Source: a virus
Lineage: Duplodnaviria; Caudoviricetes
DNA: 64,000 nt
Virus record (IMG/VR): IMGVR_UViG_3300018012_000099
Strand: one strand, 5' to 3'
The first letter of the stretch is position 1. Each line of letters begins with the position of its first letter. Positions 29,010 to 54,215 of the stretch are shown piece by piece. A model generated the notes under the pieces. That model was not told the origin of the DNA. It saw only the letters and a list, made by a program, of their open reading frames with translations, and searched no databases. The position numbers were made by a program, and so were the translations under genes.

Positions 29010-29642
29010 TCAAGTTTTTGCCGTTAATTTTGAAAACCACTTAGATGATAATTGTCTGAACTTTTTAATTTGTTTAGTTTTAGATATTTTTGCTTTAGTC
29101 TCTTCTGAACGTGGCTTACCAAAAGTCCAATGTTTATCTTGACGACAAGCGTTACTTATTTTGTTTTTAGTTTCTTGCGAGTGTTGTTTACCAAACATTG
29201 AGGTTTCTTGACCTATTTTTCTTGGTCTTTGTTTGGCTTTTTCCGACATTATCTGTTTGGTGTCCAAAGAATGTGTTTTGCCAAACATTTTATTATTTTC
29301 TCCCAAATTTAATTTTGAAAGTCTCTTTTTGCTTTCTTCTGAATGCCCTCCCTTATACCCTTCACCACCGTTAGTTAAATTATAGACATTGTTCTTGCCT
29401 AATAATTCTTTAGCTCTAATAATCCACTCTATCTCAGTATAATTAGCTTGATCTTCTGTTTCTACGCTAGTAATAATATTTAATGAAAAATTTTGTCTCC
29501 CATATTTGTTAATAGCAAGATCAATAGGCATAGACTTACTTTTACATGAATTGTGTTCCCAATTTCTTCTTTTGAGATTATTAGTTTGACCAATATATAC
29601 TTTACCATTGATCAAATTTTCATAAATATAAATATCAATCAT
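29010..29642 (-). mobile_element. GIY-YIG homing endonuclease with NUMOD3-like repeats
   Basis: DIYIYENLINGKVYIGQT, VYNLTNGG and repeated FGKxHSxETK motifs. Confidence 0.9.
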
Positions 29643-30525: not shown

Positions 30526-30882
30526 ATGACCGAAATCTTACAATACATGCCGGGTATGCAAGTCACTATCTTTTTGGAAACATTAGATATCAATGGACAA
30601 CGTACCAACGATGGATATGATGGATACACCGTACCCGTGGTGACTCGTATCATTTTGCCGGGTTATACCTTAGCGATGGGATATCCACAACCACTTATTC
30701 AATTGGATGTAGGTCTATATACTTTTCAGTTTCAATTGCCTAGTGGAGCCGCGGCAGTCGGCAGTTATTTAGTAGATGTAGCCTATATGAATACGTTGGG
30801 GTTTGTGAATTATCAAACTTATCAAATTATTGTGACTGCGCCGTTTGGTCTCTACGGTATAACTGTGCCGAGTGTATCATGA
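30526..30882 (+). CDS. Small Ig-like neck-associated protein
   Basis: Resembles the N-terminal domain of 30879-31775 (GLYTFQF vs GQYSYIF, then G.Y...W/V); tandem DGYDGY. Confidence 0.55.
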   Translation: MTEILQYMPGMQVTIFLETLDINGQRTNDGYDGYTVPVVTRIILPGYTLAMGYPQPLIQLDVGLYTFQFQLPSGAAAVGSYLVDVAYMNTLGFVNYQTYQIIVTAPFGLYGITVPSVS

Positions 30883-31775
30883 TTAAGGGTAGAGGCGAAT
30901 TAATTGACGTGACAGATCAGGTCAATTTAATTGTACAATTTAAAGATGCATCAGGTAACCCCATCAACACGGATTCCTTTCCACAAATTTCTATTGTTCA
31001 ACCCAGTGGCTTGGTGCTATTAGCGCCCACTTCTATGGGAGTAGCTCAAGTGGGGACGGGTCAATATTCCTATATCTTTACCGTTCCTATCAACGGTCCT
31101 TATGGTGTCTTCAATGATGTTTGGACGGGTTTTATCAATGGTTCTCGTGTGCAAGCCACTTTGAGTTTTGTGGTGACTCACACCCAGATTCCAGCCATCA
31201 ATACGGATGGTTACATTCATTTGGGTGATGATCCAGGATTTCGTTATTCCCAATGTGCTATTCAAAATATCAACAAATTGATTAAATCACTGAAGGCTAG
31301 ACTTAACAGCGCCGGTAAAGCTAAATCGGTAGATGGTTATGGCAATACTATCTATGTGGATTGTGATATCTTTTCAATTGATATGTTGGTGACTTTTATT
31401 GCTACAGCTTTGTGGGATTTTAATCAGGTGCCGTATTTTACTTTCTTTACTTTTGATGAAGATGATTTCGTTAATCAGTTCGGGGAGATTTTGGTGGAGG
31501 GAGCTACTTTGTATGCGTTGGCTTCCAAGGCTTTGATCGAGAGGGGAAGAGAGTTTCAGATTACGGATAATGGATTGAATTTTAATCCGCCGACGGTAAG
31601 TGAGTTGATGGAGACACAGTATTCGACACTACTAACGGCATATAATGATAAGCTACGATATATAAAGAACTCACTTCGTCCGGCACCAAGAGGTTTAGGA
31701 GTATTTAGTATGAATAGTGCTATAAACCCGGCATTTGCAAGATTACGCCACCTTAGGGCGAGACGTCTGATCTAA
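30879..31775 (+). CDS. Head-tail connector (neck) protein
   Basis: Ig-like N-terminus plus helical C-terminus (GATLYALASKALIE...QYSTLL); position between head and tail genes. Confidence 0.6.
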   Translation: MIKGRGELIDVTDQVNLIVQFKDASGNPINTDSFPQISIVQPSGLVLLAPTSMGVAQVGTGQYSYIFTVPINGPYGVFNDVWTGFINGSRVQATLSFVVTHTQIPAINTDGYIHLGDDPGFRYSQCAIQNINKLIKSLKARLNSAGKAKSVDGYGNTIYVDCDIFSIDMLVTFIATALWDFNQVPYFTFFTFDEDDFVNQFGEILVEGATLYALASKALIERGREFQITDNGLNFNPPTVSELMETQYSTLLTAYNDKLRYIKNSLRPAPRGLGVFSMNSAINPAFARLRHLRARRLI

Positions 31776-31777
31776 TA

Positions 31778-32551
31778 TTATCTATGTCTAGTTCTATTAA
31801 TACCTTCTAGAAAGTTCTGTTTAGATGATAAGGGACGTAAATTATTTAATGACCAACATCTCATAAATTTTTCATCGTCCATGGAGGTATAATCAAACAG
31901 TGACTGTGGAATAATATGGTCGATTTGCCATGTCCATGTTGAGCTGGCATTATCGTCCCATGTTTTAGGATTATATTTGCCATAGTTGTCCCAAGACATC
32001 CATGGTTCGAATTGTTTTTCTAAATGCTCTTTTAGTTCTTGAATAGAATAGGGAAGATAATCTAAACAGGAATATCCATTTTTAGATGAATCATTAGACT
32101 TCAGATAAAAATTAATATTAGCCGAGACAGATGTCCTGATTCTAAAATTAGGATCATTAATGCGACGTTCTTTAGTATATTCGTTTTGATATTTTCTGAT
32201 TTTATCCGCATTTTTAATGCGATATTCTTTATCCTGTTTTAGGATATCTTCTTTGTTTTCTTGGTAATATATTTTGTTATACTCTTGTCTTTCTTCTTTA
32301 TGTTCCTGATAATACTCTTTTTGTTTTTCTAATTTTTCTTCTTTATTTTCTTCGTAGTGATCTTTTTTATAGGTTAAAATTTCTTCTTTATTTTCCTGAT
32401 AATATGTTGCGTCATACTCTCGTTGATACTTTTTAATCTTGTCTTTGTTTTTCTCACGGTATTGGCGCATATATTCGGTGTTGCACTGCTTACATTTTCC
32501 ACTCTTGCCGACATCATCCTTTTCAAGCCCGCACATACTACATTTCTTCAT
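31778..32551 (-). mobile_element. HNH homing endonuclease with N-terminal Zn finger and EKY-rich helical repeats
   Basis: CSMC...CKQC, YYQENKEE repeats, MSWDNYG...IDHIIP...NLRPL...N; start at 32551 after GGAGA. Confidence 0.85.
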
Positions 32552-32601: not shown

Positions 32602-32970
32602 TTATTTAGGTTCTAACGGATTAGCTAAAACTCCTGAAACCGCCTCGGCTTCTATGCAAATGCCTTCTACAATAATCCAGTCGCCAGAAGTAAAGTTTTT
32701 GGTTATTTCTTGATCATTAGCTAACCAAGCATTTGGTGCGCGCCCCACTTCAACATTATCTGTTTCAATGACTATCTGTAGGGGCAATTTTTGGGCTGCC
32801 GGGTGGACATAGCTGTGTGAAAATAATCCTTCCATTTTTAATCGATCAAACATTATTCTGGACACATCCAACTTATGACCATTATAGGGACCGACGCCAG
32901 CATAAGTAATAGATTGAATTTTGCCCACTAAAACATCACCCAGTAAGACTTTTATATTTATATATGTCAT
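32602..32970 (-). CDS. Shortened paralog of the tail tube protein
   Basis: VGKIQS, RIMFDRLKMEGLFSHSYVHPAAQKLPLQIVI and DWIIVEGICIEAEAV align with tube VGAVQS, RVRFDRLRVAEAFSRGFVHVASQAYPFDIVI and DWVITDTMTWEAETI. Confidence 0.75.
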   Translation of the reverse strand: MTYINIKVLLGDVLVGKIQSITYAGVGPYNGHKLDVSRIMFDRLKMEGLFSHSYVHPAAQKLPLQIVIETDNVEVGRAPNAWLANDQEITKNFTSGDWIIVEGICIEAEAVSGVLANPLEPK

Positions 32971-33002
32971 ATGAAACAATATATCAGAGACCAGCTAACT
33001 TC

Positions 33003-33554
33003 TCAAATACTTCTATCTGATTCAACAGCGCTCCGTGCTTCTTTCTCTCGGGCGCTTTCAATTGGTAAGGTGGTAAAGAGCTTGGTATCTCCCTCATCTC
33101 CGCCCCACAGCACCGCTTCCTGCACCATAAACTGCAAGGGCGTGTCCATCTTATAATCATCATATCCATGGGGAGAATAAGCCAAGGTAATATGGGGCTT
33201 GTATTCTTTGAAGGTCTGCTTAAAATCCACTTTAGCGGCTTGCAAGGCTTTGACCAATTTTTTATGCAATTGGTGCAATTCCTCCGACTTGACGGGGGCG
33301 ATGATGGGAACGGGATGATCGGGGCGAGGAGGAAAATGTGAGACGTGATCTGCTTTGACGGAGAAGGGCTCCGTCTCCGCCATAATTTCATAAGCCGCTT
33401 CGGTGGCTTTCAACATCTTCTTGATGGACCAGTTATCTTCAAACACCAATAAAGTAATATGATACTCCGAAGGTGTTTCTTTTTCACCCGGAACCTCCAA
33501 ATTACGAATTAATCTGCCCACCTCGTGGGGCACGCGAATTCCCAAAAAAGCCAT
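33003..33554 (-). CDS. 2H phosphoesterase (LigT/ThpR-like)
   Basis: Two HxT motifs, EYHITL and KPHITLAY, at the expected spacing. Confidence 0.88.
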   Translation of the reverse strand: MAFLGIRVPHEVGRLIRNLEVPGEKETPSEYHITLLVFEDNWSIKKMLKATEAAYEIMAETEPFSVKADHVSHFPPRPDHPVPIIAPVKSEELHQLHKKLVKALQAAKVDFKQTFKEYKPHITLAYSPHGYDDYKMDTPLQFMVQEAVLWGGDEGDTKLFTTLPIESAREKEARSAVESDRSI

Positions 33555-33603: not shown

Positions 33604-34146
33604 ATGTCTTTCAAGAAACATGAGAAAATCCCACTCTCGGTGGCACGCAAATTACCCTATAAGTCACTGGCTCGCATGATTAAAAAGATGCGCGAGTACT
33701 TGAAGAAGGACCCAGTGGTGCAGGAAATGTTCAAGGACTATGGGGTGGAGATCGAAGAAATTGATTATATTCCTATGATGTTTGGAAATATTGATGTCTC
33801 GGCCAAGACGGATCATGGCGTCATTATCTTTAACTTTAAATTGCTGACCGATGGTGATTTTTTCGAAGATTTTTCCTACGGGGTGCATGAAATGACCCAC
33901 TGGCTGCAACAAACTACGGGTAATAAAGCGACTCGTAGTTCGGATGATGGTAACTATCTTAGAAATCCTTTTGAACAGGAAGGGTTTGCTAATCAGGTAG
34001 AATATATTGCAAATCAATTTGGCGATGGTAAGGCGGAAAAGTACGTGGACGATTTATTAGATCATCATGATGTAGATGGTAAAAAAGAAAAAGATGAATT
34101 AAAAGCTATCTTCCTTGACAAAGTGGCAGGAAAATATTCTTTCTGA
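33604..34146 (+). CDS. Zincin-type metallopeptidase-like protein
   Basis: VHEMTHWLQ (HExxH) with a downstream NPFEQEG candidate third ligand. Confidence 0.65.
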   Translation: MSFKKHEKIPLSVARKLPYKSLARMIKKMREYLKKDPVVQEMFKDYGVEIEEIDYIPMMFGNIDVSAKTDHGVIIFNFKLLTDGDFFEDFSYGVHEMTHWLQQTTGNKATRSSDDGNYLRNPFEQEGFANQVEYIANQFGDGKAEKYVDDLLDHHDVDGKKEKDELKAIFLDKVAGKYSF

Positions 34147-34151
34147 AAAAT

Positions 34152-34742
34152 TTAATTCTTATTACTATTTATTAGATTTTGTTTGGCGCTCAAAGGGCGG
34201 AGGTTATCAAGAGACCAACATTTCTTGAAGTTATCATCTTCCATGCTTGTGTACGGTAATTTGCTTTGTGGGATAATATGATCGATATTCCATGTCCAAG
34301 TAGATGGATCATTATCGTCCCAAGTTTGAGCACTATATTTGCCATAGTTGTCCCAGGTCATCCATGCTTCAAACTGTTTTTCTAAATGGTCTTTTAAATC
34401 TTTAATATCATATTCTAGATATTTGAGACATGATTCATTATTTTTGGAAGAATTATTAAGTTTCATATAGTATGCTATGTATTTGGATACATGCCCACGT
34501 AATTTGAAATATGGATTATTCCTTTTTTTACTGTGGTAATATCTGGCATTCTTTTCTTTTATTTTGTTTTTATTATTTTGCCTATAAATTTTTCCATCTT
34601 CGGCTAATTTTTCTTTGTTCTTTTGGTTGTATATTTTTCGATAAGTTTTTAGGAAAATTTTTCTGCAATCCTTGCATTGGTTGCGATTTTTTTCAAAGCA
34701 TGTTTCATCTTTGTAATTTTTACACATCGTACATTGTTTCAT
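34152..34742 (-). mobile_element. HNH homing endonuclease, paralog of 31778-32551
   Basis: CTMC...CKDC; the C-terminal HLEKQFE.WM.WDNYGKY...WDDN..STWTW.IDHIIPQS is nearly identical to the first copy. Confidence 0.85.
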
Positions 34743-34771: not shown

Positions 34772-36760
34772 ATGGTAACTTATGCTGATCCAGTTCGAGT
34801 GGGGCTATCTCGCGTAGCATCAATGGGTGATGGTTACACTATTAATATATCATGGTTTCAGGCTTATTCCACGCTTCCTTCAAACAAAATAGCTTATCAT
34901 ATTTATTATGGTACGGATAACACTAAATTAATTCCAGATTCAGAATATCCAGACATATTTTCTGAAGGTGTCAAGCTGGTGGTGATTGATGGTTCCACCG
35001 AAGTTAATGTGATTGGATTAACTCCAGGTCAGGAATACTGGTTTTGTGTGCGACCGGTAGAGTATGATCCAACCATTTTTAATTTGTCAAATTTACCTAT
35101 TGCTCATGATAACGTGCGTTTTTATCCCAGTAGCTTGCTCCGTCAAAATATGACGGCTACCGATTTGATTGTGCCACTAATGGATGTGGAAGGATTTCCC
35201 AATATGGGAGTCGTGCAAGTAGGTATAGAACTAATTTTATATTTAGCGGTAGATGCGGTCAATAACAATTTGATTGTACCGGGCGGCACCTCTCCAATTA
35301 GTGGACATTTGGTATTACAATCTAACAATCAATACTATTTGCCAAACCCTAATAATACGGGACAGGGATCTTTAGGTTCTTTGACTTTGGTAGGTGGTGA
35401 CACTAATGGCACCTACAGTATTAGGTGCATCTTTGTGCAACGAGATGGTAGTGGTAATCCCATCTCCGGCACTGCTAAATTCGTGGTTATTAGTCCCCCA
35501 CCAGGCGATCCGGTGGATGGTTATGGCAACTACCCAGTTTGGGTGGCTAACGGTCCGATAGTTTCTGATGGTATCTTGAGTTTTGGTATTGTTGAAAATG
35601 ATGGATATACTTTTGTACCGGGCGATTCTTTTACCGTCCAAGTAGCCGGAGCACAACCAGGTCTGTCCAGCGGTCGTGGCTATGATAACACTCCGATTAC
35701 CTCTCACTCGGTTAGTGGTTTCGATGGCTACAATACCTGGAATCCTTTGGTTACTGTCTTTACTTTAACCGAGTCTCGCCTTTATGATCAGATGTATGTT
35801 TGCTTATCTCGTTTTGAATATCCTAACTTTCCTTTCACTATTATTGATGGTTATAGGCAGGTACCCGTCGATTATTTGAGCACAGATTTAGCTGCCGCTG
35901 ACGCGGCTAATGTTACTTTCCCGATATACGACTATGCGGGCTATCACCGTACTGATCCGGTACAATTGCTCAATGGTACTTGCGTAGGCAGTTACATCGG
36001 TGGAGAGATGGGTTGTATCGATGCTTACGGCAACTACAACATCTATCGTGGTTTCTCACTCCAGGATCAAAATACTCAGCGTCAAGACATTTTATTGTCC
36101 GTTACGGGGCAACCAGCTGTTCTAGTACAGAGAGTGCAGACGGGAGACGTATGCAGTTGTTACCTCTCCACTAGCGAATATCCTGACGACCGTTGCCCGT
36201 TCTGCTACGGCACCAAGTTTGTCTTTGGATACACCCAATATTTCAATCCGCGTCAGTCGGACGGACGCATCATGGTGCGTTTGGGACCAACTGCTGAAAA
36301 TCTAAAAATGCATGAAGGTGGTTTGGAATCTGAGTTCCCGCTAGATATTTGGACTCTCACGGTGCCTACCATCAAGACACGTGATTTCTTGATTTTGTTC
36401 GACCAGAACGATAACGAATCCTTCCGCTACGAAGTAGGGGACGTCATTCGTAATCAGACCATTTTAGGTCAAGATGGCGGTCAGCACTTGAAGACCTTCC
36501 GTATCCGTAAGACCGATCCGGCTTATCAAGTTAGGGTGTTCCGTAACACTTCCGATTTTCCAAATACCATCAATACTTCTTTGGGTATGGCTCCTCCTGC
36601 TATTCCGCCTCATAGCCACACCATCGTAGTAAATGAAAAGGTTTTGGCGGTCAGCCAAATTAATCAGACTACCGGTATCTCACAGGGACATAATCACCCA
36701 ATTACGGATGGGGTCGTTCAAACGGTGCTCGGGCATACACATACTATTATTCTCCCCTGA
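34772..36760 (+). CDS. Head-closure / neck protein with accessory domains
   Basis: FN3-like N-terminus, a domain shared with the sheath, a CSCY...CPFC Zn site, a head-closure-like C-half (IKTRDFLI...RYEV) and HxH repeats at the end. Confidence 0.6.
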   Translation: MVTYADPVRVGLSRVASMGDGYTINISWFQAYSTLPSNKIAYHIYYGTDNTKLIPDSEYPDIFSEGVKLVVIDGSTEVNVIGLTPGQEYWFCVRPVEYDPTIFNLSNLPIAHDNVRFYPSSLLRQNMTATDLIVPLMDVEGFPNMGVVQVGIELILYLAVDAVNNNLIVPGGTSPISGHLVLQSNNQYYLPNPNNTGQGSLGSLTLVGGDTNGTYSIRCIFVQRDGSGNPISGTAKFVVISPPPGDPVDGYGNYPVWVANGPIVSDGILSFGIVENDGYTFVPGDSFTVQVAGAQPGLSSGRGYDNTPITSHSVSGFDGYNTWNPLVTVFTLTESRLYDQMYVCLSRFEYPNFPFTIIDGYRQVPVDYLSTDLAAADAANVTFPIYDYAGYHRTDPVQLLNGTCVGSYIGGEMGCIDAYGNYNIYRGFSLQDQNTQRQDILLSVTGQPAVLVQRVQTGDVCSCYLSTSEYPDDRCPFCYGTKFVFGYTQYFNPRQSDGRIMVRLGPTAENLKMHEGGLESEFPLDIWTLTVPTIKTRDFLILFDQNDNESFRYEVGDVIRNQTILGQDGGQHLKTFRIRKTDPAYQVRVFRNTSDFPNTINTSLGMAPPAIPPHSHTIVVNEKVLAVSQINQTTGISQGHNHPITDGVVQTVLGHTHTIILP

Positions 36761-46349: not shown

Positions 46350-49187
46350 ATGGCTGACATACCCGGAGCAACTAATGCATTACCAGGACCGTTTACGCTC
46401 GTCCAGACATCGTCTGCGGCTGTATCTATTCCGGGCGGTTCTCGTGTAACTGCCATGATCGGTCAAGGTCAGACTAATGAGACCGTTGTGGCTCAAGCTC
46501 AAGGTGGCGGAGTTGATGGTTTGAACGCAACCTATACCTCTACTAGCGGTGCAGACGGTAGACATTTTACACTGTTACAAGCTCCAATCATCTCTAACAG
46601 AACTACTCTATTTAAAAACGGTATCCCCCTCGTCGGTATGGAGTCTACTATCACTGCAACTACCACTTTCAGTGATGCTTTTGATTATCTTATCGATGTC
46701 ACTACGGGTCATATCCTATTACAATCTGCCCACTTAGTAGATCAAGGTGGCGCTTTCTATGTTCCTCTTTCTACTAACGTTGGTTTGGGTACTATCAATG
46801 CTCTGACTCTAGTGGATGTTAATGCTCCACCAGAAACTTGGACCGTGCGCTGTATATCCGTTCAAAGAAATTCTATGAATCAACCAATCGGTGGTACTGC
46901 TACATTTATTGCCGTAGGTTCTGTTTCCGGTGCGCAGGTAGATGCTAATGGTAATCCAATCGTTTGGATTGCTGACGGCTATGTTGTTAGCAATGGTATT
47001 TTGAGCTTCAGCATCATTGAAACTCAAGTACTAAGCGTATATGTTTCTCCATTCGTTCCAGGTGACGCTTTCACTATCGAAGTGGCTAGCGGCGTGTTGA
47101 TTAAAAATGATAGTTTAACTGCTACCTATATTCCAGTAGCTAATATTAATAATCCTATTTTAACTCAAGGTCAAAATCAGGTTATTGCTCAATTTGGCAA
47201 TCCGAGCTTAGATAATAGTTTGTCTTTGGGTGGTCAACTGTTCTACGCCAACGGCGCTTCTAGTCTTATCTGTTTACAGGCCGCACCACCGCTACCTCGA
47301 CGAACTTCTTTCATTCTCTCTCATTCGGTTAATTCTGCCTCCACTAATGATGATGATTTCGTTTTCCCGTTACCTGTGGGTGTGGTTCCGGCGTTCAATG
47401 ACGATATCCACTTTTTCATTACTAACAATACTAATCAAGTAGAAACTCAGATTCTACCTAACAAACAGACATATTATACTTTAGGTACAGCGGGTAATCC
47501 AACCTTAGATCAATTTATCAAGGATAACGTACCCGCTCCTGGTGGATTTTCCTACTTCTATACCGTTATTCAAAGTTTCGAAACCTTGGTAACTGGTTTT
47601 GATGGTTATATTGGTAGAACTGGACCACAAACTAATCAGGGAGTTTTCTCGTCTTCTGTTACTTTTGACTCTACCTACATTGGTAAAGAAATTAGAATCA
47701 TTGACGCGCAGAATGTAGCTAACATTAATGCCTCAGCTACTGGCGGAAATGATAATCCAACTTTCACCGTCACTGGTGTTTTTGATGGTCAATTGTACTT
47801 CATGGGCAGCGTACCATTCCCAGATTTAACCAACGTAGCCGGTACCGAAGCTTTTGAGCTGATCGATCCATCTACTGATACAGTGGTTCCAGGCAGCCAA
47901 GCAACCCAAGGAACTGTTGTAGAAAATGTAGGCACTGGAACTGGTACTATTACCGATGCTGTGGTTAATTTTAACAGCATATCTGCTTTCGTAGCAAATC
48001 CAACTCACTATAAAGTACAAATCAACGGAGATATTAATAACCAGGGTTTGTATGATATTACTGGTTATAGTTCTGTAGGCAATGGTGTCATTTCTATTGC
48101 CAAGGCTTTGGTTAACGAACATAATGTACGTTATGAAATTATTGATCCTACTTTGGTGAGTAACTATATCGTTATTAATCATAACGTGGTACCAAATGGT
48201 TTCGGTTTGAGAGTTACTCTCGTTGATAATCGTGATGCTACTTTCTATGATGCTGGGTGGCTTAATGCTCTTGCTGCTTTAGAAACAATAGAATGCGATA
48301 TCTTAGTTCCATTGCCAAATCAAACTATCAGCGTTATCTTCCAGAACTGTGTCAATCACTGCATCGCTATGAGCAACATCGTCAACAAGAAAGAACGTGT
48401 GTTGTTCATCGGAGCTATCAATGGTTTGACCCCAGCTAACGTAACTGGACAACAACTAGCTGCCGTTGAAGACCTAGGACCACTAGAGGGTATTCCGGGT
48501 AGCAACCCAAGCTTGATTCTACAAGCTAACCCACAAGACTTGGCAAACTACTCAGTATCTGCCGCTTACGGATACACTTTCCGTGTTGTCTACTTCTATC
48601 CTGACCAAATTGTGGTCGCTGCTGGAGGTAACAACATTTTGGTGGATGGATTCTATATCGCTGCTGCCGCCGCGGGTTACGAATCTGCTGACGTTATTCT
48701 CCAAAATCCTCTAACTAACAAAACCATTTCTGGGTTCACTATCTTGAATAACAAGAAGTTCTCTACCCTGGTACTAGAACAATTAGCTGCTGCCGGTATT
48801 ACCACCTTGCAGCCAGTTGCCGGAGGTGGGAATGTGGTCTGGGGTATCACCACCAGTCAGTCTGGATTCCCAGAAGAACAAGAAATTTCCATCGTTTTTA
48901 TCAGAGACCGCGTAGCGAAGGTTTTGAGAGCCGGATTCCAAGGTTTCATTGGCACTCCACAGGATGTCAATACTGCCGCTGTACTCAACACCGAAGCAGT
49001 AGTTCTGTTGAACTCTCTAGTAGGTCAAGGTTTGATTACCGCATACAAGGACCTGGCAGTATCACAAGATACCGTAGACCCACGTCAATGGAACATCTCG
49101 GTGAGCGTCAGCCCAGCTTATCCAATTAATTGGATCTTTATCAAGGTTAACATTACCAACCTTAATCTAGGTGGTTCTGGCGGTTAA
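46350..49187 (+). CDS. Contractile tail sheath protein with large insertion domains
   Basis: N-terminal LPGPFTLVQT and C-terminal EISIVFIRDRVAK...DPRQWNISVSVSPAYPINWIFI sheath signatures; followed by the tube gene. Confidence 0.88.
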   Translation: MADIPGATNALPGPFTLVQTSSAAVSIPGGSRVTAMIGQGQTNETVVAQAQGGGVDGLNATYTSTSGADGRHFTLLQAPIISNRTTLFKNGIPLVGMESTITATTTFSDAFDYLIDVTTGHILLQSAHLVDQGGAFYVPLSTNVGLGTINALTLVDVNAPPETWTVRCISVQRNSMNQPIGGTATFIAVGSVSGAQVDANGNPIVWIADGYVVSNGILSFSIIETQVLSVYVSPFVPGDAFTIEVASGVLIKNDSLTATYIPVANINNPILTQGQNQVIAQFGNPSLDNSLSLGGQLFYANGASSLICLQAAPPLPRRTSFILSHSVNSASTNDDDFVFPLPVGVVPAFNDDIHFFITNNTNQVETQILPNKQTYYTLGTAGNPTLDQFIKDNVPAPGGFSYFYTVIQSFETLVTGFDGYIGRTGPQTNQGVFSSSVTFDSTYIGKEIRIIDAQNVANINASATGGNDNPTFTVTGVFDGQLYFMGSVPFPDLTNVAGTEAFELIDPSTDTVVPGSQATQGTVVENVGTGTGTITDAVVNFNSISAFVANPTHYKVQINGDINNQGLYDITGYSSVGNGVISIAKALVNEHNVRYEIIDPTLVSNYIVINHNVVPNGFGLRVTLVDNRDATFYDAGWLNALAALETIECDILVPLPNQTISVIFQNCVNHCIAMSNIVNKKERVLFIGAINGLTPANVTGQQLAAVEDLGPLEGIPGSNPSLILQANPQDLANYSVSAAYGYTFRVVYFYPDQIVVAAGGNNILVDGFYIAAAAAGYESADVILQNPLTNKTISGFTILNNKKFSTLVLEQLAAAGITTLQPVAGGGNVVWGITTSQSGFPEEQEISIVFIRDRVAKVLRAGFQGFIGTPQDVNTAAVLNTEAVVLLNSLVGQGLITAYKDLAVSQDTVDPRQWNISVSVSPAYPINWIFIKVNITNLNLGGSGG

Positions 49188-49213: not shown

Positions 49214-49885
49214 ATGGCTCAAGCACCCAATACAAATTCGACACTTTCTTTTCCGGGCGGTCAGAATAAGACCTCCACGGCTATATCTACTAACATTATC
49301 ATTACTGTTAGAAACTCTACGGGAGTAAATATTCCCGTGGGAGCCGTTCAATCTATGGCTATCTCTGAGAAAAGACCTATCAAGATGGTTGATGAAGTTG
49401 GAACCGATGGTCACATCGATTCTGTGCCAAATCAATCTACTAATATTACTGGTTCTTGTCAACGTGTACGTTTCGACCGATTGAGAGTGGCAGAAGCCTT
49501 CAGCCGTGGATTTGTTCACGTAGCTTCTCAAGCTTACCCTTTCGACATCGTAATTTTTGACAAGCAAAAGTTAGCACAAGGTTTACAGATTTCTACCGTT
49601 ATCAAGAACGTGTGGATTTCTGGTATTGATTATACTTATCAAGTTAGCGACTGGGTTATTACCGATACTATGACTTGGGAAGCGGAAACTATCTTCTCTA
49701 TTCTTAACAACGGATCTTCTACTCCAGTTGCTCAAGGTGGCGAACTTGGTATCCCATTCAGCAATATTCCAATCGAACGTCAGACAGACACCGGCACCAA
49801 CGGTCGTCGTGGTTCTTTGGATGCTCCGGGTCTCATAGATCTCGGATCTGCCGCATATACCCCTCCTGGAACTGCAATCTTCTAA
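49214..49885 (+). CDS. Tail tube protein
   Basis: Follows the sheath; VGAVQSMAISEKR...EVG and WISGIDY...EAE tube-like pattern. Confidence 0.8.
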   Translation: MAQAPNTNSTLSFPGGQNKTSTAISTNIIITVRNSTGVNIPVGAVQSMAISEKRPIKMVDEVGTDGHIDSVPNQSTNITGSCQRVRFDRLRVAEAFSRGFVHVASQAYPFDIVIFDKQKLAQGLQISTVIKNVWISGIDYTYQVSDWVITDTMTWEAETIFSILNNGSSTPVAQGGELGIPFSNIPIERQTDTGTNGRRGSLDAPGLIDLGSAAYTPPGTAIF

Positions 49886-53315: not shown

Positions 53316-54215
53316 ATGGCTTTTTCCTTAGACAATATCATTTCTAGTATCAATAGTGCACAAAATACACTTAATCAAGCTACTAATCCGCTCAACGGCA
53401 GCTTATCTAATTCTCCAGGTTTTAACGCACCTCAGTTACCCGAAGCCAACGGTAATGGCTTACCTTATAGTAGGATTGCGAGTGGTAGTGACGGCGTTAT
53501 TCGTCGTAATATTATTTCTTGGTTTGTTCCTCAATTTGGCGTAGCCCAAATGTTCATTAACCCACAGAATATTAGCTACTCCAACAAAAAACTAATCACC
53601 AAAGAAAGAACCAAGGGTGGATTTACGCTGCAATACTGGGGAGAAGATTTAACTACTATTAATATTAATGGAACTACAGGTAGTTCTGGTATCGAAGGCA
53701 TTAATATGCTATATGAAATCTATCGTGCAGAACAATACGCTTTTGATGCGGTAGGTTTGACTTTGGCTGCCAATAATGCCTCAGCTGACGTAGCAACCAA
53801 TTTAGTTAATTCTTTAGGAGGAAACTTAGGTCAATTTACCAATAGTTTGTTGCCAACTAATGTGCAGGTAGGACCACAGACCGCGGCTGCCGAGGGGGCA
53901 GGACTACTGGGCGGTATATTGGGATTGGACTCACCTAATAATACATTATCGGCCAAAAATATTCCATCTTTGGCTCAGTTGGCCTTTACAGTGGAAATGT
54001 ATTACAACGGGTGGGTTTTTCGTGGATATTTTGATAGTATGACTTTTACCGAACGTGCCGACAACTTTTTAATTGACTATCAAATGGTTTTTATGGCTAC
54101 TCAAAGGAGAGGTTACCGTACCAATTATTTTCCATGGTCTCATGCTGCCAATACTGGCTACAGCACTTACAACACGCCCACTTCTTTCAATGGAAATATT
54201 ACTGGAGTCAGATGA
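53316..54215 (+). CDS. Baseplate tube-initiator-like protein
   Basis: FINPQNISYSNKKLITKERTKGG...YWGE...ININGTTG tube-fold pattern directly after the tape measure. Confidence 0.6.
   Translation: MAFSLDNIISSINSAQNTLNQATNPLNGSLSNSPGFNAPQLPEANGNGLPYSRIASGSDGVIRRNIISWFVPQFGVAQMFINPQNISYSNKKLITKERTKGGFTLQYWGEDLTTININGTTGSSGIEGINMLYEIYRAEQYAFDAVGLTLAANNASADVATNLVNSLGGNLGQFTNSLLPTNVQVGPQTAAAEGAGLLGGILGLDSPNNTLSAKNIPSLAQLAFTVEMYYNGWVFRGYFDSMTFTERADNFLIDYQMVFMATQRRGYRTNYFPWSHAANTGYSTYNTPTSFNGNITGVR

Follow-up and report, generated by a model that had tools for sequence, protein, structure and literature searches.

The short open reading frame on the minus strand at 32602-32970 of the 64,000-nucleotide stretch of phage DNA analysed here (the window) is a true paralog of the phage's tail tube gene. 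Comparison with its relatives suggests that it is probably a functional, dispensable and fast-evolving accessory gene, and not a core part of the virion. What the protein encoded by this antisense gene does is a more tentative matter: it may act as a non-polymerising mimic or decoy of the tube, a reading that we favour but hold with considerable doubt. The window belongs to a wetland-metagenome contig of about 245 kb, and tubes with 51-90% identity to its own occur on IMG/VR contigs of up to 480 kb.

The tail tube gene and its short paralog

The genes that enter the comparison are the following.

32602..32970, minus strand: short tube paralog, 122 aa; the tube beta-sandwich core without N arm, hairpin tip and C arm
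46350..49187, plus strand: tail sheath (PHROG tail sheath, E 5.6e-12)
49214..49885, plus strand: full-length tail tube protein, 223 aa; parent family of the short paralog

The gene at 49214-49885 is assigned to the tail tube because it lies directly after the sheath gene and because its AF2 model matches the tail tube of phage 812 (Foldseek E 1e-6, TM 0.71 by target). An HMM scan of all six frames detected only two members of the tube family in the window, this gene and the short one. By BLASTP the two proteins share 31% identity over 87 aa (E 1e-11), and when the alignments of the two families were compared with hhalign, residues 3-119 of the short protein were matched to residues 25-168 of the tube with a probability of 100 and an E value of 8e-40. 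The motifs GAIQS, RxRFD, FSRGFxH, NAW, DWII and EAE are common to the tube and the short family, and the motifs of the short family also include QxxPxQI. Between VGxxQS and RxxFD the tube has 36 aa and the short form 17, and it is in this segment that hhalign places a 19-residue gap; two further, smaller gaps comprise 5 and 6 residues. Neither residues 1-24 of the tube (a 24-residue N arm) nor residues 169-223 (a 55-residue C arm) have a counterpart in the short form. The short gene starts with an ATG, at which its homologs begin as well; a start at the in-frame TTG at 32979 would lengthen the protein by 3 residues. It is separated by 16.2 kb from the tube gene, which is on the other strand, and it lies 32 nt downstream of a gene for a 2H phosphoesterase (33554..33003). 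A preliminary description of this locus had recognised a tube paralog in which the VGxxQS-RxxFD segment is shrunk and both terminal arms are missing, and had placed it on the opposite strand, 16 kb from the tube and downstream of the 2H gene. The alignments and the measured distances agree with it on all of these points.

The same description had treated the short gene as a lone orphan, and this does not hold, since we found about 60 clusters of homologs and a conserved genomic slot. A phmmer search of 1.84 billion representatives returned 60 proteins at E values up to 1e-3, nearly all of them 109-170 aa long and matching the query from end to end; the family amounts to about 60 clusters, at 50% identity, of homologs of 110-145 aa. 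The profile built from the short homologs also retrieves tubes of 200-235 aa. Other resources returned nothing beyond the protein itself. No match to either the short protein or the tube was obtained by tblastn among GenBank phages, a word-index protein search with the short protein as a single sequence found only itself, and a pattern scan of IMG/VR with the short protein found no relative. The short protein has no Pfam match at E values up to 1, the short family has no PHROG model, and the 2023 PADLOC library gave no match for P0001, P0005 or P0064 at E values up to 0.1. We know of no name or description, in the libraries searched or elsewhere, for truncated, non-stacking tube paralogs that behave as accessory genes; the fold and the parent family are known, and the short-tube family itself is, to our knowledge, previously unnamed.

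When tubes and short forms were placed in one tree, the tubes clustered tightly on short branches of about 0.05-0.5, and the short forms lay on long branches of about 0.6-2.5. A single clade of short forms was not rejected by the AU test (p 0.956), and on this result we make no claim of recurrent, independent truncation. The identical short protein occurs on 22 contigs from many samples, and the ten of these loci that were fetched carry the window's allele without any nucleotide difference.

Short tubes of a second subfamily, 141-143 aa long with an N-terminal extension and 43-50% identical to the window's tube, are encoded in non-structural surroundings, immediately before a phage EF-Ts gene. 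Their neighbours include RNase HII and tRNA-synthetase-like genes (loci compared: L042:6279-6704, L046:3644-4075 and L072, the last at G004:72000-79000). A complete relative of 480 kb has the same EF-Ts junction, with an EF-Ts 65-81% identical, and no short tube of the second subfamily there. When L043 was compared with L042 (L042:6030-7148), 57 of 1120 aligned bases differed, and only one of these differences, a synonymous one, fell within the 426-nt short-tube gene; the divergence is concentrated in the flanks, including the downstream gene of 134/137 aa. This pattern could reflect a recombination boundary or strong local conservation.

Further observations concern the tail genes of the window. 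A domain of about 100-180 aa of the tail sheath (46350-49187, plus strand) recurs in the product of the 662-aa gene at 34772-36760 (plus strand) and in the homologs of that protein in relatives, the relatives' copies being 35-56% identical to the window's sheath by BLASTP. The gene at 53316-54215 (plus strand), which lies downstream of the tube, of two small chaperone-like ORFs and of a 748-aa candidate tape measure, has a weak match to a putative tail tube initiator family of Pfam (PF23980, E 4.9e-5, below the cut-off) and to a PHROG virion structural protein.

Predicted structure of the short protein

From an alignment of 50 sequences AF2 predicted for the short protein a compact, tube/Hcp-like beta-sandwich of eight strands with one short helix (mean pLDDT 91, pTM 0.83). 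The ESM Atlas's own model of the protein was poor (pLDDT 0.46) and its neighbours were uninformative. The best Foldseek matches of the AF2 model are short Hcp proteins of similar length, and its matches in the PDB include tail tubes as well as cap, neck and baseplate chains. In the AF2 model of the tube (pLDDT 71) two extra strands, 56-60 and 67-72, form a protruding hairpin. The place of these strands in the short model is taken by a 5-residue turn (residues 27-31), the length and sequence of which vary across the short family. The tip of the hairpin is near-invariant in the tube alignment (E61, G63, D65, G66, D69 and P72), and the 19-residue gap of the short form falls exactly on it. The models, then, do not retain the hairpin, a point chosen beforehand as one on which the preliminary description could fail. 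A two-chain prediction of the tube together with the short protein gave a score of 0.00, below the mark, in a single job run without controls, and it carries no weight for or against binding.

The roles of the missing elements can be read from the tube of the myophage phiTE, in which the extended hairpin makes up a large part of the interface between rings, the N-terminal extension wraps the hairpin of the neighbouring ring, and the C-terminal arm wraps the adjacent subunit laterally (PMC11972413). In the model of the short protein the core is kept and the elements that stack and lock the rings, namely the N arm, the extended hairpin and the C arm, are lost. Being without all three, it would present tube-like surfaces and would not be expected to polymerise. 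The anatomical part of the preliminary description, a paralog stripped of the ring-stacking elements of solved myophage tubes, is supported by these models; the function derived from it, the poisoning or capping of tails, fares less well, as discussed below.

A plastic slot within the structural module

The order of genes around the short tube in the window is 118-aa gene (+), 298-aa gene (+), HNH gene (-), short tube (-), 2H gene (-), 180-aa gene (+), HNH gene (-) and 662-aa gene (+). The features of this region are listed here.

29010..29642, minus strand: GIY-YIG/NUMOD3 homing endonuclease, within the structural module
30879..31775, plus strand: 298-aa structural-module gene, one border of the slot; conserved, 75-91% identity in relatives
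31778..32551, minus strand: HNH homing-endonuclease-like gene, inserted downstream of the short tube gene
32978..33006, minus strand: sigma-70-like promoter match, TTGAGA-17-TATATT with an extended -10 TG; a consensus match only
33003..33554, minus strand: 2H phosphoesterase (LigT / 2'-5' RNA ligase superfamily), immediately upstream of the short gene and on the same strand
33604..34146, plus strand: 180-aa gene with an HExxH motif, the other border of the slot; conserved, 49-86% identity in relatives
34152..34742, minus strand: second HNH-like gene, paralogous to 31778-32551

The promoter match ends 7 nt before the ATG of the short gene and is the best site of the region, which contains no more sites of this kind than shuffled sequence would lead one to expect. 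Upstream of the ATG there is no Shine-Dalgarno sequence, and an mRNA started from the promoter match would be leaderless or nearly so. When all upstream regions were inspected by eye for a late-promoter motif in common, nothing usable emerged. A search of public RNA runs listed none for the region or the gene. The 2H gene, whose antisense position is conserved in all examined relatives that keep it, shows weak similarity, just below the Pfam cut-off, to Acb1, the anti-CBASS protein that is among the 2H enzymes (Pfam PF23474); the neighbour may alternatively be an RNA-repair enzyme.

We considered whether the short gene could be the cargo of a composite cassette bracketed by HNH genes and rejected this, as relatives keep the short-tube and/or the 2H arrangement without either HNH gene. 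The HNH gene at 31778-32551 is not found at the corresponding position in L045, L041 and L069. Several short-tube loci are free of HNH genes, which are therefore regarded as later insertions and not as carriers of a cassette. The two HNH-like genes and the GIY-YIG/NUMOD3 gene are missing at these positions in relatives with the same flanking genes, and so they look like independent insertions and not like the ends of one composite element.

In at least eight lineages of related huge phages the short gene lies in the same slot, between the 298-aa and 180-aa genes and antisense to the structural genes (the window, L040, L041, L045, L047, L068, L069/L070 and the P0012 contig), and it is antisense in every locus seen. 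The 2H gene is directly upstream in four of them (the window, L045, L068 and the P0012 contig), and the slot holds the short gene without 2H in L040, L041, L047 and L069/L070. Five larger relatives, on the other hand, have no short tube detectable by tblastn or by profile search, and yet they keep the tube, the antisense 2H gene, the 180-aa gene and the 298-aa gene (75-85% identical). A 394-kb record that is 92% complete and a 480-kb record that is 100% complete are among them. In these five relatives the place downstream of 2H holds nothing, a 105-aa ORF, a Methyltransf_24 methyltransferase, an HNH gene, or LAGLIDADG and GIY-YIG genes. The place downstream of 2H is a plastic slot for accessory or mobile genes. 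The absence of the short gene from five relatives, two of them 92-100% complete, indicates that it does not encode a conserved, stoichiometric part of the baseplate or neck, the role that would have told against the preliminary description.

Some observations on the genes around the slot may be added. In all five of the large relatives (L053-L057) the 2H gene lies antisense between the 298-aa and 180-aa genes. A second, partial paralog of the 298-aa protein, with 50-53% identity over residues of about 123-278, is found elsewhere in two large relatives, at G004:175526-175993 and G002:13846-14283, each match with an internal TAA. The structural module of related phages also contains genes for a patatin-like phospholipase and a cold-shock-domain protein (L068:14486-15346, L069:11183-12925).

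The short gene changes rapidly within this slot. Across the syntenic loci, identity to the window is 30-42% for the short tube, 81-91% for the 298-aa gene, 69-86% for the 180-aa gene, 57-72% for the 662-aa gene and 46-64% for the 2H gene. A 118-aa gene of the structural module nearby is also fairly divergent (44-57%), so that rate alone does not cleanly separate the classes of genes. NG86 estimates were obtained for one close pair, L041 and L071. In this pair 15 of 129 residues of the short tube differ, with dN 0.059, dS 0.215 and dN/dS 0.27. The corresponding values for the part of the 180-aa gene that was compared are 2 of 122 residues, dN 0.007, dS 0.366 and dN/dS 0.019, and in the part of the 298-aa gene none of 107 residues differs and dN/dS is about 0.013. 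The ratio for the short gene is thus roughly 15-20 times that of its flanks in this single pair. Since a dN/dS of 0.27 is clearly below 1, the short gene is under purifying selection and encodes a real protein; as estimated from the one pair of sequences, its constraint is far looser than that of its structural neighbours.

Possible roles and related systems

The scheme that we tentatively favour, that of a soluble tube mimic, draws on where the short gene lies and on how fast it evolves. A copy of the tail tube gene of this phage would have become a short paralog without N arm, hairpin and C arm, read in the direction opposite to the late structural genes, either jointly with the 2H gene or directly after it. 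Its orientation and the promoter-like site directly upstream would allow expression ahead of the late genes. The product would be a soluble mimic of the unassembled tube subunit and not a stoichiometric part of the virion, and it would tie up a tube-monomer-binding factor, in the first place a host immune sensor, and not set it off. Evasion of such a sensor by changes in the tube would be barred by the constraint of assembly, whereas a free copy could evolve fast. A host sensor is the preferred target because the tail tube protein is a known immune trigger: bacterial DSR2 senses the monomeric tail tube protein (PMC10981675). The decoy is favoured in addition because a constrained tube beside a fast-evolving free copy matches the observed asymmetry of rates, and because the short gene travels with 2H, a member of the superfamily of the anti-CBASS protein Acb1 (matches below the cut-off). 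We know of no phage-encoded tube-like decoy. Fast evolution and a patchy distribution also fit other accessory roles.

According to the preliminary description, the short protein would be a chain terminator that joins or caps tube rings through its core and stops their elongation, poisoning the tails of co-infecting relatives or host contractile systems, or capping the phage's own tube. This model is structurally reasonable, as all three stacking or locking elements are missing and the core is kept (the roles of the elements being those described for phiTE, PMC11972413), and it has a genomic analogue in Tab of phage JBD26, another antisense gene in a structural module, with its own promoter, such as the short gene possibly has (PMC10884400). 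It would also suit an accessory gene of patchy distribution in phages of which many close relatives co-occur in similar samples. We nevertheless consider it unlikely, because under it the tube should be drawn into conflict, yet the evolution of the tube is not accelerated, and because it calls for a gene for self-protection, of which none was seen. The presumed target is conserved (51-90% identity) and slow, with no sign of escape, and it is the short gene that evolves fast; the phage's own tube, 70-90% identical to those of its competitors, would be equally exposed, and no immunity partner resembling anti-Tab is evident in the loci inspected. Nor are Tab and Tai described as tube paralogs, and Tab acts from a prophage. 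The variant in which the protein caps the phage's own tube is made improbable by complete relatives that do without the short gene.

It is similarly doubtful that the short protein is a lineage-specific minor component of the virion, such as an extra ring at the end of the tube or an adaptor in the neck or baseplate, even though many virion ring proteins reuse the tube fold (PMC11972413), the PDB matches include cap, neck and baseplate chains, and the gene sits inside the structural module, with neck or fibre-like genes on either side. It is missing from relatives in which the adjacent structural genes are nearly identical, two of these relatives being near-complete; it runs antisense to every structural gene around it; its dN/dS exceeds that of the flanks roughly 15-20-fold in the one pair, and its identity is 30-42% against 69-91% for the flanks; and the sister subfamily resides among translation and replication genes. 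The resemblance to short Hcp proteins of similar length, the best Foldseek matches, could instead point to a free Hcp-like ring or monomer that has taken up a new job, as a chaperone or carrier for a small protein or as a partner of the 2H protein, whose gene it often adjoins and with which it is likely co-transcribed. We rate this as improbable, too: four lineages have the short gene without 2H and five have 2H without the short gene, and since each occurs without the other, neither needs the other; moreover, no conserved gene for a small partner adjoins the short gene. Truncation, fast evolution and a patchy distribution, finally, are what a decaying, functionless duplicate of the tube gene would display, but this is very unlikely and largely refuted by the occurrence, across about 60 clusters, of intact ORFs that are alike in length and conserve the core motifs, by an AF2 pLDDT of 91, by the dN/dS of 0.27 and by the identical protein on 22 contigs.

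More generally, we consider it close to an even matter whether huge phages carry dedicated, fast-evolving, polymerisation-dead mimics of the tube core, either as decoys for sensors or as dominant-negative caps against the tails of competitors. If they do, this would be the first case of a virion protein that has been duplicated and stripped down into a mimic for use in conflicts between phage and host or between phages. Tail tube proteins are among the most conserved proteins of phages, are sensed by bacterial immunity and are hard to mutate, and a cheap, freely evolving copy that does not assemble could interfere with host sensors or with the assembly lines of rival phages. The family of about 60 clusters combines a clear structural logic with a conserved slot, presence/absence polymorphism and an elevated dN/dS. 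The short protein is small, soluble and easily expressed, and the model makes predictions on rings, on the capping of tubes and on defences that sense tubes.

Among known systems the tail tube of contractile-tailed phages is the closest in descent. The short protein has the beta-sandwich core and flanking short helix homologous to those of the tubes of phage 812, Milano, PVC/AFP and diffocin, but it lacks the extended hairpin with its near-invariant tip and both the N- and the C-terminal arms. A tube gene of this clade is expected directly downstream of the sheath and in every member; the short gene does not lie there, is antisense and not universal, and evolves many times faster than the tube gene. 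In size (about 120-160 aa), in having a bare tube-fold core and in its best Foldseek matches, the short protein resembles Hcp of the T6SS. Hcp rings do not stack spontaneously, and Hcp also serves as a chaperone. Unlike Hcp, however, the short protein has no Pfam match, and its gene lies in a phage structural module and not in a T6SS context.

The tube fold is also reused to end or to start the tube, in the tail terminator, the head-completion protein and tube initiators (PMC11972413), of which the window's 53316-54215 is a candidate. These caps and adaptors are encoded by conserved, co-oriented core genes of the late operon, whereas the short gene is antisense and dispensable among close relatives. 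Tab of phage JBD26 is likewise encoded by an accessory gene on the opposite strand of a structural operon, with its own promoter (PMC10884400), where the short gene has a promoter consensus match only. The outcome of Tab and Tai, tailless particles, is the one that the poisoning model would predict for the short protein. Tab, however, targets the tape measure and is not described as a tube paralog (PMC10884400), and it is expressed from a prophage together with an anti-Tab gene, for which no candidate counterpart is evident in the short-tube loci inspected. As to the role proposed here, the nearest analogues may be DSAD1 and other inhibitors of DSR2, which stop the sensor from responding to the tail tube protein. 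In the papers surveyed DSAD1 is not described as tube-like, whereas the short protein is, and by this analogy the short protein might act on DSR2 or a comparable sensor by resembling the very subunit that is sensed.
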